A stretch of DNA of 64,000 nt from a virus (Duplodnaviria > Caudoviricetes). Made by a program: the position numbers and the translations under genes. The stretch lies in the IMG/VR virus record IMGVR_UViG_3300031857_000001. The stretch is one strand, 5' to 3'. Below the pieces are notes generated by a model. The model worked only from the letters and a program-made list of their open reading frames with translations, did not search any database and had not been told where the DNA came from. How positions within the stretch are numbered: position 1 is the first letter of the stretch; every line of letters starts with the position of its first letter. Positions 547 through 60,850 of the stretch are shown in pieces.

Positions 547-858
547 ATGAAATATATAATCACCGAATCTCAGAATTTACAACTTAAAAAAATTAAGTTC
601 TTAAAGGACCATATTAAAGAACTATTATCTAAATACGAATGGTTTAATGGTGATGTTAAGATAAATGTGTCAACTTGGGTTAACTCAGGTAAGGTATATC
701 CTTTATATGAAATTTTGTTAGATACAGGTGGTCGTAGTTATCACTCTTATGATGAAGGTGAGGAGATTGAGGATAGTATTGACACCATGTTTACATTATT
801 ATTTCCTAAAGATGAAAATGACCGTCCCACTTCTGTATGGGATGTTGCTTTTGTGTAA
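547..858 (+). CDS. hypothetical protein with MKYIITESQ leader
   Basis: TATTTAT upstream; leader shared with other ORFs. Confidence 0.7.
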   Translation: MKYIITESQNLQLKKIKFLKDHIKELLSKYEWFNGDVKINVSTWVNSGKVYPLYEILLDTGGRSYHSYDEGEEIEDSIDTMFTLLFPKDENDRPTSVWDVAFV

Positions 859-917
859 AATTTTTTTCGTCGTTGTTCCAATCCCCCCTACCCCCTTTTT
901 TATTCTGAGTATATTTA
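858..917. repeat. C-rich intergenic cassette copy 1 (AAAATTTTT...CAATCCCCCCTACCCCCTTTTT + AGTATATTTAT)
   Basis: Related copies near 1461, 2781, 3471, 4578, 6038, 7968, 8661. Confidence 0.85.
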
Positions 918-924
918 TTGTTAT

Positions 925-1461
925 ATGAAATATATTCTTACCGAGTCCCAATATGCCGGACTGTTGAAACTAATTAAAAAACACGAAGACGATATATACT
1001 TCTTGAAAAGTAATATAGTGTCTACAATTGAATCTGATATAACCGATGTTTTACACTCCAAGTTTCAAGGTAGATTTGGACACTATGGTTATATGCAATA
1101 TCCCGCATTTTTTATTTATCCTGAAAAATTGGCGTCCGAACTTGCGAAATATAATGTAAGGGAACCATTTTTGGTTATTGATTATAATGTAAAAAAATCC
1201 ACAGGTAAAGTTGAAATTAACATCTTTTGGAATTCAAACGTGTATTTTGATTATAAAAGAGAAGATGGTAGATGGGAAAGACATAGACAACCCAAAAATA
1301 GTATTAAGTGGGACTATATAAATAACCCTGATGGACAAGAGGAATTCTTATCTAAATTGGAAAAGACCATTAACGGAAGAATTAGTGAAAAGGCTCAAAA
1401 CAAAATTATTAATGATTTTGAAAAACTTTATTCAGGGCCATCACCTAAGTTTTTTTCCTAA
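925..1461 (+). CDS. hypothetical protein with MKYILTESQ leader
   Basis: ORF track; TATTTAT upstream. Confidence 0.75.
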   Translation: MKYILTESQYAGLLKLIKKHEDDIYFLKSNIVSTIESDITDVLHSKFQGRFGHYGYMQYPAFFIYPEKLASELAKYNVREPFLVIDYNVKKSTGKVEINIFWNSNVYFDYKREDGRWERHRQPKNSIKWDYINNPDGQEEFLSKLEKTINGRISEKAQNKIINDFEKLYSGPSPKFFS

Positions 1462-1503
1462 ATTTTTCCCTTCGGGTTGTCAATCCCCCTACCCCCTTTT
1501 TTA
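1461..1503. repeat. C-rich intergenic cassette copy 2 with CCC-TTCG-GG hairpin
   Basis: aatttttcccttcgggttgtcaatccccctacccccttttt; near-identical to 2781 and 3471 copies. Confidence 0.85.
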
Positions 1504-1559
1504 TTTGGTCTATTTGCTTTATCTTTGCCCAAAGATTAATTAACAATATATTTATTACT

Positions 1560-1685
1560 ATGAAACCTGAAGAAATCAACATTCCAAAAAACTACGTAGA
1601 CAAAACTGACGAGACAAGGAACAAATTGATTCGAGATATGTTTCCTATTAGTGAAAAAAAGAATGAATCTAAAACAAAGAATTAA
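1560..1685 (+). CDS. small hypothetical protein (41 aa)
   Basis: Manual translation MKPEEINIPKNY...SKTKN*; TATCTTTG (1520) and TATTTAT upstream. Confidence 0.5.
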   Translation: MKPEEINIPKNYVDKTDETRNKLIRDMFPISEKKNESKTKN

Positions 1686-57798: not shown

Positions 57799-57854
57799 AA
57801 TAGTAATATTTTACAAATATAGGAAATTTTTGAATAACAAAATATTTATTTTAT

Positions 57855-58103
57855 ATGAAAAACGATATTGATTCAATCATTTCTCTGATGAAATCGTTTA
57901 CTCCGTCATCAGATAAAGAAGAAATGGGAGAACAGGACGCTGCAGCACCTGCCTCGGGAGGTGGAGGAGCTAAGCCGGCGTATCCTACGGTAACAAAATG
58001 GGAAAGTGGTGTTGCAAGAACAGGGCCTGCTAATCAAATAGGACTTACAAAGTGGAGTGAAATTGTTAAATTAACAAGAGGTAAGGCTAATACTTTATTA
58101 TGA
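57855..58103 (+). CDS. small protein with duplicated KW...R.G.AN motif
   Basis: TKWESGVARTGPANQI / TKWSEIVKLTRGKANTL. Confidence 0.65.
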   Translation: MKNDIDSIISLMKSFTPSSDKEEMGEQDAAAPASGGGGAKPAYPTVTKWESGVARTGPANQIGLTKWSEIVKLTRGKANTLL

Positions 58104-58143
58104 ATTTATTATAAGTAAGATATATTTATTAAAAAACTAAATC

Positions 58144-59154
58144 ATGGATAATAAGAGAAAAATCGGAGAAGAAGAATTAAAAAGAGCTCTTCTCATGATG
58201 AAATACGACAGTAAAAAAACATTAACCGAAAATGTACAAGAAGTTGGAAAACCACAAATTTTAAATGAATGGGGGTTTTTATTACCGGCTTTAGGAAGAT
58301 TAGGGGCTTCACTATTAGGAAAAAAAGCCGCCACTACGGCAGCTGGCACTGCGGTAAAACGAGGTTTAGGAGCTAGAGCCGCAGGTTTTGCAATAGATAC
58401 CGCAGCATTTACATTACTCACATCTTGGATTAGTTCACTAATGGGAGGTGGAGACGCGGAACAAAAACTCAAAATGTTTTTTGAAGGTTGCCCAACTCAC
58501 ATGGGAAAAATACAAGGTACCAATAGTCAAGAAGAAATAAGAAAGGCTGCCGATACAATTTGGGAAAATTCTGAAGGTGAGGATTGGTACGAAGGATTCG
58601 GTTCTGGAAATGAAGAAAACATTAAAAAGGCCATTAAATCTATGAATACTATTTCCGATATTTGCGCATTAAGTGGTGTGTTTTATGATGTATATGGAAC
58701 TACTTTAGAGGATGCACTTACGGGTGAGGCTACGGGGTCTGACTTGGTTTCATACGTATGGGTTCCTATAAATGATAAAGTTAAAGAATCCGATTCTCAA
58801 TTATCGGAATTACAACAACAAAATGCACAAGATGGTGCAACAGGTGAAACCCAAGATGGAGGAACAGGTGAAGCTCAAAATGCGCCTGCAATAGGTAGTT
58901 ATACACCATGTAGTGGTACTTACACAAGAGGATGTTATTCTGAGGCAATTAAAGAGGTTCAAACATGTTTAGGAGGTTTAGTTCCTGATGGTAAATTTGG
59001 GCCTAAAACACAGGCGGCGTTAGACGGAGTTGGTTTTGGTAGTGGATTTAAGGATTCTGATGTTTCCAAAATTTGTAACGTATCATCAATGCCTGAACCT
59101 GATATGGATTTACCGACACCTGATGAAGATGACATTGATTCATTGAATATTTAA
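58144..59154 (+). CDS. leader-bearing protein with C-terminal peptidoglycan-binding domain
   Basis: Leader ends ILNE; AIKEVQTCL...PDGKFGPKTQAAL. Confidence 0.7.
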   Translation: MDNKRKIGEEELKRALLMMKYDSKKTLTENVQEVGKPQILNEWGFLLPALGRLGASLLGKKAATTAAGTAVKRGLGARAAGFAIDTAAFTLLTSWISSLMGGGDAEQKLKMFFEGCPTHMGKIQGTNSQEEIRKAADTIWENSEGEDWYEGFGSGNEENIKKAIKSMNTISDICALSGVFYDVYGTTLEDALTGEATGSDLVSYVWVPINDKVKESDSQLSELQQQNAQDGATGETQDGGTGEAQNAPAIGSYTPCSGTYTRGCYSEAIKEVQTCLGGLVPDGKFGPKTQAALDGVGFGSGFKDSDVSKICNVSSMPEPDMDLPTPDEDDIDSLNI

Positions 59155-59167
59155 AAAATTTAACCGA

Positions 59168-60850
59168 ATGAAAAAAAGAAATATTATAACGGAACAATCC
59201 GCTGTCATGGATGACAGAACAAAACTAAAAACCGCTGCCGAAAATGGATGCTATCCTAAATGGTTAAAAAATGGAAGATTAGGTAACTATAAAGGTAAAA
59301 AAGTTTGGTATGGCACAAACGATAAAGGAAATACCGTTATCTTCTATGCGGATATGACCGCAGAAGTTAAGTTCAAAGATACAGATAAACCTTCTAAAAC
59401 TGGAAAATGGAAATGTCAGGCATTAGAACAAACAGTTGGTGTGGAAACTCCAATGGAACAATTCACTCCTGACCAACAAAAATACATTGAAGATTTGGTT
59501 AAATATGAAGGTGTTGTTAGAGAAAAACCATCTGACTATGAAACAAATCAAGGAAAATATGAGGTCATAGATTTAAATTCCAAAAACCCAACTTTATTCC
59601 CTAAAGTCGGAGTTGCGATGGTTTATAAACAAAAGGGCGAAATTAATATTGATAAACCACAACAAGACCAAATAATTCAATCTTACAAAGATAGAGGGTA
59701 TCAAATTGAAAGACCACCAGCAACTGAAAGTTTATTTTGGAACTCAATTGAATTAAGAACCGCTGAAGATGGTAAATACTCAGAATATTTTTCAAAACCA
59801 TTTTTCATGTATCAGAGAGTCCAAGATACAAAACTTGCGGACGAAGACGTTAAGCAAGTTGAAATTGATAGTCAAAGTCAAGATGTTGAAAAATCTTTAT
59901 GTAGACAATATATTCAATCTTTATACACTCACATGTCCCAAAACAAAGCCATGGAAGACACTATGAAGAATAACATGAAGATTTATGTTAGAAGATGTGC
60001 CGCTCAAGATAAAATTCCGATGTTTGCTAAGAGTAAATATGAGGAATTATATGGTTTGAACCCTTATAGAAATTCTTATAGTTTGAGATGTCCGGCAGGA
60101 TACAAATTAAATGAATTAAAAGTTTGTATGCCGGTTAAGGGAAAAAATGAAAGCATCGAACAAAAAGAAGTTATTGATAGTTACGAGATTGATTTGAAAA
60201 AATCAATTAAAGAAGGACTTAAAAACTATAAAGGTCCAAAAAAAAAAGTTAACGAGAACGAAACCAAAATAATTAAAAACAGAATTAAATTCATAACTGA
60301 GGACATAAATTTAGACTCAGTTGAGAACCAAAAAAAGGTGGGTTCAGAATTATTCGAGGAAGTTATGTACCTTCGTTCACAAGGTTTTAATTCTCCATTA
60401 TTAAATGAAAGTTTATTTGACTTTTTAGGTGGAGTTTTAGGACACTCAACTGAAGGAGTAAGTCAGTTCTTTAAAGAGAAATTAGTAGATAAAGTTCTAT
60501 CAATATTAGGGGTAAATCCTGATAGCTGGGTTGGAGGAGTGGTATCAACAACTATTGGTAACTTAGCGTTAAGTGACATTCCTAAAGTATTTAGTGATTG
60601 TAGTTTTACAACAAAATTATTATCAAAATCAATCGCCGAAGAAGCCGTTAACCAAGTTAGATTAGGTGTTGGAGTATCTGGAGGTTTCTATGATATTCTT
60701 TCAAATACTTTAGTTGATATGATTGAAAAAGGTGATTTCGCCCAATCAGTCGAAGAAAAATTAGCAGAATCAATTTGTCCTATGTTATCTGATGTTAGAC
60801 AAAAATTTACTGATACAGAACAAGGTTTAAAGGACAAAGTTTTTTCTTAA
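59168..60850 (+). CDS. large hypothetical protein, leader IITE, internal LLNE site
   Basis: 560 aa ORF. Confidence 0.7.
   Translation: MKKRNIITEQSAVMDDRTKLKTAAENGCYPKWLKNGRLGNYKGKKVWYGTNDKGNTVIFYADMTAEVKFKDTDKPSKTGKWKCQALEQTVGVETPMEQFTPDQQKYIEDLVKYEGVVREKPSDYETNQGKYEVIDLNSKNPTLFPKVGVAMVYKQKGEINIDKPQQDQIIQSYKDRGYQIERPPATESLFWNSIELRTAEDGKYSEYFSKPFFMYQRVQDTKLADEDVKQVEIDSQSQDVEKSLCRQYIQSLYTHMSQNKAMEDTMKNNMKIYVRRCAAQDKIPMFAKSKYEELYGLNPYRNSYSLRCPAGYKLNELKVCMPVKGKNESIEQKEVIDSYEIDLKKSIKEGLKNYKGPKKKVNENETKIIKNRIKFITEDINLDSVENQKKVGSELFEEVMYLRSQGFNSPLLNESLFDFLGGVLGHSTEGVSQFFKEKLVDKVLSILGVNPDSWVGGVVSTTIGNLALSDIPKVFSDCSFTTKLLSKSIAEEAVNQVRLGVGVSGGFYDILSNTLVDMIEKGDFAQSVEEKLAESICPMLSDVRQKFTDTEQGLKDKVFS

Follow-up and report, generated by a model that had tools for sequence, protein, structure and literature searches.

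Exchangeable N-terminal tags on unrelated proteins of giant phages: candidate capsid-targeting propeptides of the T4 type

The 64,000-nucleotide stretch analysed here (hereafter the window), from the IMG/VR virus record IMGVR_UViG_3300031857_000001 (Duplodnaviria; Caudoviricetes), encodes a series of otherwise unrelated proteins that begin with similar short peptides, which we call tags. The reading that we favour, and to which we grant somewhat better than even chances, is that these tags are capsid-targeting propeptides of the T4 type, expanded in number and in kind. The tag, whose sequence suggests a short, basic and hydrophobic start followed by an amphipathic helix, would attach the protein, as in T4, to the scaffolding core of the prohead during its assembly. 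A head protease of the gp21 family would then cleave after an [L/I]-x-E triplet situated in the tag or at its end, and the freed body would stay in the capsid and enter the host together with the DNA. A preliminary description of the window had already proposed these leaders as capsid-loading signals, and this proposal is strengthened, short of proof, by the following observations: the tags are portable, selected as peptides and N-terminal, they have a promoter motif in common with the protease gene, and a gp21-family protease is encoded in tag-bearing genomes. The broader proposal that two lineages of giant T4-like phages with Bacteroidota-type hosts, one of them from freshwater, use about a tenth of their genes to encode injected effectors, addressed to the capsid by a few interchangeable tags, is plausible, with chances that we place a little below even.

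The similarity of the N-termini was measured independently of any motif by the best ungapped BLOSUM62 score over residues 2-31 for every pair of 106 window proteins. Forty-five pairs of N-termini score 35 or more, compared with about 2.9 expected for shuffled N-termini, five for residues 31-60 and eight for the C-termini; the comparison with shuffled N-termini, a check fixed beforehand, thus upholds the leaders. Single-linkage clustering yields one cluster of 24 members containing 21 of the 25 claimed genes, and the signal peptides form a separate cluster. The bodies (residue 41 onward) are unrelated by blastp, as had been stated, with the exception of 1663 and 46883 (genes are named by their lower coordinate). 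Each of the 25 coordinates given in the preliminary description corresponds to a gene, five of which lie on the minus strand: 54946, 26096, 26700 and 27143 are the start ends of such genes, and 50728 is the stop end of 50728-51258 (-).

A leave-one-out (LOO) profile hidden Markov model (HMM) was furthermore scored, for each class of leader, against 2200 shuffled decoys. The idea of about 25 unrelated proteins with shared leaders is borne out for 22 of the 25 (p<0.01) and fails for 56427, 58144 and 8044. All three members of class 3 are supported (48-61 bits), as are five of the seven members of class 2, the failing ones being 56427 and 58144. Seven class-1 members have no equal decoy, and 46883, 54317 and 50728 are matched by 1-5 decoys. 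In class 4, 26098 and 26697 are clear, 25632 (7 decoys) and 1663 (19 decoys) are marginal, and 8044 fails. Chance similarity is ruled out by the shuffles and the LOO decoys. The genes are listed below with their lengths in amino acids (aa); G001, G002 and G005 are three complete related genomes presented further on.

547-858 (+): class-1 short form (MKYIITESQ), 103 aa; LOO 11.6 bits, 0/2200 decoys; TATTTAT at -12
925-1461 (+): class-1 short form, 178 aa; LOO 16.9 bits, 0 decoys; TATTTAT at -13
10637-11632 (+): class 1, 331 aa, tag end LINE at residue 23; LOO 9.1 bits, 0 decoys; other tag on the G002 ortholog
14698-15033 (+): canonical class 1a, MKKIIRLTESDL..VITE, 111 aa; LOO 22.2 bits; part of an operon of eight tagged genes
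15067-15372 (+): class 1a, 101 aa; LOO 18.1 bits; TATTTAT at -22
16333-16680 (+): class 1, 115 aa; LOO 21.8 bits; 3' of the 34-codon open reading frame (ORF) 16228-16332 (TATTTAT at 16207)
46883-47923 (+): class 1, 346 aa, HExxH body homologous to 1663; LOO 9.6 bits, 1 decoy; HECNH at residue 167
50728-51258 (-): divergent class 1, 176 aa; LOO 4.4 bits, 5/2200 decoys; class-1-like tag kept in the G001 and G005 orthologs
51859-52263 (+): class 1a, 134 aa; LOO 14.6 bits; G001 and G005 orthologs with class-4-like tags
54317-54946 (-): divergent class 1, 209 aa, two INES/ITES repeats; LOO 6.0 bits, 2 decoys
4640-5701 (+): class 2, 353 aa, tag end LLNE at residue 24; LOO 22.1 bits
8720-10591 (+): class 2, 623 aa, C-terminal PG_binding_1 (Pfam); LOO 24.2 bits; other tag on the G001 ortholog
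13218-13544 (+): class 2, 108 aa; LOO 20.8 bits
13588-14304 (+): class 2, 238 aa, OmpA-like domain (Pfam); LOO 21.2 bits
15374-15937 (+): class 2, 187 aa; LOO 13.0 bits
56427-56951 (+): claimed class 2, unsupported; LOO -0.4 bits, 167 equal decoys; N-terminus kept in the G001 ortholog
58144-59154 (+): claimed class 2, unsupported; LOO -2.2 bits
2840-3184 (+): class 3 (YRKRFFMLMESSMGDVKPLILE), 114 aa; LOO 47.6 bits
12517-13209 (+): class 3, 230 aa; LOO 60.6 bits
14316-14696 (+): class 3, 126 aa; LOO 60.7 bits
1663-2769 (+): class-4-like, 368 aa, HExxH body; LOO 3.0 bits, 19 decoys; LILNE/ALG (the slash follows the Glu, here and below) kept in the G002 homolog
8044-8661 (+): claimed class 4, unsupported, SAM-lyase-family body (Pfam PF23780); LOO -3.4 bits
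25632-26096 (-): class 4 or 'INRIKE' variant, 154 aa; LOO 4.3 bits, 7 decoys
26098-26700 (-): class 4 (MNLQETIRKVLREE), 200 aa; LOO 11.9 bits
26697-27143 (-): class 4 (MSLRETIKRILKEE), 148 aa; LOO 13.3 bits; TATTTAT at -11
19617-19880 (+): 87-aa gene with a C-terminal class-1 motif, ..TIIITEEQYKRLFT; 12-15 bits in every class-1 LOO model, above all decoys

The class HMMs recover most members of the four leader classes that had been distinguished, but the boundaries between these classes are blurred and they grade into one another. Classes 1 and 2 start alike, with M-K-(K/R), two hydrophobic residues, [LI]-[TS]-E and an acidic residue, and all classes appear to continue as a basic, amphipathic helix with the pattern R-I-(V/L)-(K/R)-x-(V/I/L); 'INRIKE(L/I)M' is a further variant seen in relatives. 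The statement that the leaders end in [LIV]-x-E is accurate for canonical class 1a (V-I-x-E at residues 19-22) and for classes 2, 3 and 4, of which a terminal [LIV]-x-E is also typical, but not for the short class-1 forms, whose only invariant triplet is the early [LI]-[TS]-E, with its Glu at residue 5-9, at the start of the helix. The string L-T-E-S-D-L is compatible with a helix start of the hydrophobic-staple and capping-box type. An [LI]-x-E is found in the first 30 residues of 24 of the 25 genes at a density of 0.05-0.08, against a background of 0.012, although the members were chosen in part on that same motif, which is also compatible with helix capping. The tag begins at residue 1-3 in all supported window members, the 87-aa product of 19617-19880 carrying its class-1 copy at the C-terminus instead. 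A signal peptide is absent from every tagged window protein, and a stretch resembling a transmembrane segment is present in only one. An amphipathic basic helix at the extreme N-terminus might also act as a membrane-association helix, or as a degron-like turnover signal, timing or localising late proteins. We judge this decidedly improbable: the conservation (invariant Glu, LTESDL) is stricter than generic membrane helices need, several sequence-distinct classes are interchangeable, and nothing links the tags to a membrane or protease-adaptor gene.

Selection on the tags acts at the peptide level. Indeed, the codons differ at 30-55% of the identical tag residues, including exchanges between TCN and AGY for Ser and between TTA and CTN for Leu, which means that the peptide is conserved and not a recently copied DNA; the tag DNA of 12517 and 14316, 82% identical, is a partial exception. 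This codon analysis argues strongly against an explanation at the DNA level. In such an explanation, the common element would be a nucleic-acid feature, either a duplicated promoter-plus-start cassette or a translation-start context, as the repetition of a cassette of about 75 nucleotides (nt) before several tagged genes, the similarity of that one pair and the A-rich MKK starts could suggest. In addition to the codon differences, it is contradicted by the fact that two divergent lineages of phages and 124 protein clusters have kept the tag, and by the presence of tags on operon-internal genes that have no cassette. We consider it largely refuted and leave it only a very slim chance.

The window itself is densely coding, with 32% G+C, and contains TAnnTTTG promoter motifs of the Bacteroidota type and sorting domains of the type IX secretion system. 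Neither the 50,697 deposited phage genomes nor IMG/VR yielded a close relative of it, and an exact 37-mer has no match in IMG/VR or in the GTDB genomes: the sole megablast match to the deposited phages is the thymidylate synthase of Flavobacterium phages, tblastn of the tag proteins against the 50,697 records gave nothing relevant, and a search for related loci with the 623-aa protein (8720) found none. On the other hand, many lake metagenomes contain short contigs near-identical to the window. The complete 304-kb IMG/VR genome G001 has 34 of the 110 window proteins, with the order kept over 43-58 kb of the window, and it was used in place of the genome parts outside the window; G001, G002 and G005 are the three complete relatives compared. 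By contig walking, no tagged gene was found in about 12 kb beyond the window end. About 12 kb past that end, a gene product (L187:1219-1536) matches Pfam T4_Y16D, a marker of the T4 lineage. Within the window, a full-length Hsp70/DnaK-like protein is encoded at 48068-49945 (+), just 3' of the tagged gene 46883.

Beyond the window, a profile built from ten class-1 tags and scored against 1.84 billion representative proteins matches 124 protein clusters at E<=1e-3, the proteins having 30-957 residues and the match beginning at residue 1-5 in about nine cases out of ten. The consensus is MKK-(I/V)-I-R-LTESDL-x-RIVKRVI-x-E. The information in its columns is high up to the final Glu (75% Glu) and then falls to background level over an acid-rich stretch, the position of this boundary being set in part by the profile model used. 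Pfam gave essentially no match on 70 of these proteins, and the clusters have no Pfam domain in common. Some database proteins carry two or three tag copies, at the N-terminus, internally and near the C-terminus; in many cases the other members of the same cluster correspond to the separate halves, which suggests fusions of neighbouring tagged genes. A degenerate DNA pattern of the tag occurs in at least 118 IMG/VR contigs, and the variant LTESDL-H-x-I-x-x-ES in at least 120 further ones, including complete genomes of 295-413 kb. An in-frame ATG precedes the motif by 3-8 codons in 98% of the matches to the tag pattern and 94% of those to the variant, and TATTTAT is found in the 45 nt upstream in 70% and 58%, respectively. 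The tag thus occurs in two lineages of giant phages, one from freshwater and a second one; the class-3 tag is found only in orthologs from close relatives of the window phage. None of the papers searched contains the tag motif strings.

The three complete relatives were scanned with the window-derived profiles at a threshold of 10 bits, the decoy maxima being 7-10 bits. N-terminally tagged ORFs number 44 of 386 in G001 (11%), and 33 of 383 and 34 of 329 in the two others; over four genomes, 116 of 125 tag matches are N-terminal. When the bodies are clustered across the four genomes, the tag is seen to change on a given body. Gene 51859 bears a class-1a tag and its G001 and G005 orthologs a class-4-like one, the 'INRIKE' type is found on orthologs of 8720 (class 2) and 10637 (class 1), one body family occurs with class 1, class 4 or no tag, and a homolog of 26098 without tag exists. 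The tags are therefore portable and functionally exchangeable. The portability attributed to the leaders from the window alone is confirmed by these orthologous bodies, which bear another class of tag or none in related phages.

In T4, the gp21 protease cleaves after L/I-x-E, and the internal proteins carry an N-terminal capsid-targeting sequence (CTS) of 10-19 residues that gp21 removes (PMC9026906). The corresponding Pfam family, Peptidase_S77 (the T4 gp21 prohead protease family), counted above its curated cut-off, is present in five of five large freshwater genomes, in five of five complete second-lineage genomes and in 14 of 30 fragments, all those examined being tag-bearing; 10 of 10 complete or near-complete tag-bearing genomes, G001 included, encode it. 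Among the tested genomes, the tags are confined to giant phages with a T4-type protease and head module. In G001, the genes follow one another as terminase, portal, a 238-aa protein, protease, a 466-aa very acidic protein that is the scaffold by its position, and major capsid protein; PHROG matches identify the portal, the protease and the major head protein, and the order portal-protease-scaffold-major capsid protein is that of T4. The G001 capsid protein is a gp23 homolog (E = 6e-25); aligned with it, mature T4 gp23* begins at about residue 45. Beside this point lie [LI]-x-E triplets with their Glu at 44, 51 and 60 (..FLINE/ATS..), and the first 60 residues contain five such triplets as against three in the other 565.

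Other features of the same region may be mentioned. The G001 protease gene (135771-136499) encodes an N-terminal G-I-L-(I/V)-E, found at about residue 15-20 in all seven genomes, reminiscent of an L-I-E that T4 gp21 has close to its N-terminus. Near the capsid gene, 141671-142969 of G001 encodes a Lys-rich protein of 432 aa with a class-4-like tag ending in ..ILRE/ATS, where E/ATS is as in the capsid propeptide, and with a full class-1 tag at residues 292-314; from its sequence it looks like a two-module polyprotein or a candidate internal protein. A complex prediction for the G001 scaffold and a small tagged protein scored 0.00 and brings no evidence either way.

It could be that the tag addresses proteins to the capsid and stays on them, [L/I]-x-E being a by-product of helix capping and amphipathic design. 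The start L-T-E-S-D-L fits a hydrophobic-staple and capping-box helix start, short class-1 forms do without a conserved terminal Glu, and a T4 CTS mutant that is not processable is still targeted (PMC9026906). We nevertheless rate an uncleaved tag as quite improbable, since the early site always has its Glu and the site at the tag end has one in 75% of cases, a site of the same kind (..LINE/ATS) is present in the relative's capsid propeptide, and the enzymes of the gp21 family cleave accessible L/I-x-E with few other requirements (PMC9026906).

The tagged genes are also distinguished by what precedes them. In the window, TATTTAT lies within 70 nt upstream of 17 of the 25 tagged genes, compared with 14 of 85 other genes. 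Of the eight remaining tagged genes, six are directly downstream in the same operon, and 1663 and 16333 stand behind short TATTTAT-led ORFs. The earlier claim that tagged genes lie behind TATTTAT or downstream of such a gene is thus verified, the TATTTAT-led units containing all 25, with an odds ratio of 11 in the window and of 4-6 in the three complete relatives. The distance from TATTTAT to the ATG takes two sharp positions, -11 to -13 and -20 to -23, in the window, G001, G002 and G005, which implies leaderless transcripts, or transcripts with a very short 5' untranslated region, for this class of genes. TATTTAT is also present at -21 to -26 of the protease gene in six of seven genomes and, in G001, 5' of the terminase, scaffold and tail genes. 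By its sequence and position, it is a promoter-like motif common to tagged and head genes, whose expression would be late. The ORFs that separate TATTTAT from 16333 and 1663 (16228-16332, +, and 1560-about 1700, +, respectively) are short and very basic; the former has 34 codons (MGKARKETKPK...), and its TAA directly abuts the ATG of 16333.

A repeated intergenic element accompanies part of these genes:

840-8725 (+): intergenic cassette of about 75 nt, eight copies; 15 pattern matches against 0.01 expected, and alignment

The copies, all on the same strand, end near 904, 1505, 2821, 3517, 4621, 6081, 8011 and 8699, and consist of an A/T run, a CCCTTCGGG hairpin, CAATCCCCCTACCCCC, T6 and usually GTATATTTAT, followed by the ATG. 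Five of them are directly 5' of 925, 2840, 4640, 8044 and 8720, and a sixth opens the unit that includes 1663. The cassette could be a terminator-plus-promoter unit and, at the same time, a recombination site for the shuffling of tagged genes.

Pfam and PHROGs assign almost no function to the tagged bodies. Among the bodies that had been named, the peptidoglycan-binding domain PG_binding_1 (8720), OmpA (13588) and, weakly, DUF6624 (25632) are recovered by Pfam, which also matches the SAM lyase (8044), but 'zincin' comes down to HExxH and a weak model. In an alignment, HExxH is conserved in 1663, 46883 and the G002 homolog. An AlphaFold2 model of 1663 built on three sequences has a mean predicted local distance difference test score (pLDDT) of 58.6, too weak for a fold search, and renders the tag as a low-confidence helix at residues 3-15. 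The two tagged proteins with peptidoglycan-binding domains need a way out of the cytoplasm, and the virion could plausibly provide one.

Several points weigh against capsid targeting. The invariant L-T-E / I-S-E at the helix start also fits an N-cap with a hydrophobic staple and need not be a cut site, and the terminal Glu of the short class-1 forms is not conserved. Nine of the 125 tag matches (about 7%) are internal or C-terminal. Depletion of [LI]-x-E would be expected in the bodies because they would face the protease, and it is not seen (observed/expected 1.11 vs 1.18), a test that we count as neutral. The tagged bodies are not basic, unlike the T4 internal proteins, 8720 could be an ordinary endolysin, and 30-45 tagged genes per genome are many for a capsid cargo. 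Finally, the protease and capsid evidence comes from a syntenic relative and not from the window phage's own genes, no cultured relative was found, and the tag motif was not found in the 50,697 phage records.

Another reading is that the tag serves fast-evolving late accessory proteins, which are not packaged, as a helix for partner binding or oligomerisation, possibly on a hub such as a chaperone, a host target or a complex for replication or lysis. The bodies are small ORFans without Pfam match, as is typical of accessory or anti-defence genes, some proteins carry the tag internally or at the C-terminus, the bodies show no [LI]-x-E depletion, and the phage encodes an Hsp70 (48068-49945). This alternative leaves unexplained the near-absolute N-terminal position, the abrupt end of conservation at the Glu, the restriction to phages with a gp21-type protease and the promoter motif common with head genes, and no candidate hub was identified; we regard it as unlikely, though less so than the other alternatives. 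We retain the capsid-targeting propeptide as the preferred reading of the tags.

Could the three-protein curiosity of T4 be one instance of a general loading system that can be scaled up and works with several interchangeable tags? Should the tags prove to be capsid addresses, the proteins delivered by uncultured giant phages (their 'ejectome') would be listable from sequence alone. Such a list would run to dozens of proteins in each genome and to hundreds of families, almost none with a known function, and would probably be rich in factors for host takeover and against host defences. Recombination at the promoter-plus-tag cassette would suffice to bring in new cargo, and the tags would be natural means of loading foreign proteins into large capsids.

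Among known systems, the cassette recalls the PeSL mobile promoter cassettes of T4-type phages, reportedly described by Arbiol, Comeau, Krisch and colleagues: both combine a promoter with a hairpin, are repeated between genes, lie next to small variable genes and could act as recombination sites in the shuffling of modules. Unlike PeSL, which is an early promoter, the cassette described here has the TATTTAT common to head genes, and its part in shuffling is putative. The cargo-loading peptides of encapsulins and the C-terminal helices of P22-type scaffolds likewise illustrate that a short portable helix suffices to place cargo in a shell of the HK97 fold; those peptides are C-terminal, bind the shell directly, are not removed and have no homology to the tags. 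The phages phiKZ, 201phi2-1 and SPN3US are also giant and load dozens of head proteins, many of them cleaved after Glu by a diverged gp21 homolog (PMC9026906, PMC10052503). These phages cleave at S/A/G-x-E, their propeptides are long and dissimilar instead of a few common short tags, and their protease is a distant homolog without a Pfam S77 match, whereas the protease here belongs to Pfam S77.

The closest comparison is with the CTS of T4 (the IPI, IPII, IPIII and Alt propeptides). Several features differ: T4 has a handful of tagged genes and not 30-45 per genome (about 10% of the genes), and the present tags, which are 13-28 residues long and have a clearly amphipathic helix, fall into at least four or five classes that are swapped on orthologs. 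By eye, their likeness to the T4 CTS is limited to M-K, a hydrophobic stretch and [LI]-x-E. In addition, the bodies lack the basic character of the T4 internal proteins, some of the tags lie internally or at the C-terminus (in T4, Alt also loses a C-terminal propeptide; PMC9026906), and the tags are known from sequence alone. The common features are the following: a short N-terminal tag on unrelated bodies, which contains or ends in L/I-x-E, in a lineage with a gp21-family protease, a head module in T4 order and a gp23-type capsid protein. As in T4, furthermore, related phages keep the tag but differ in the bodies. CTS-like tags are also present on other, variable proteins of T4-related phages, and the T4 CTS is portable and carries foreign proteins into the head (PMC9026906).

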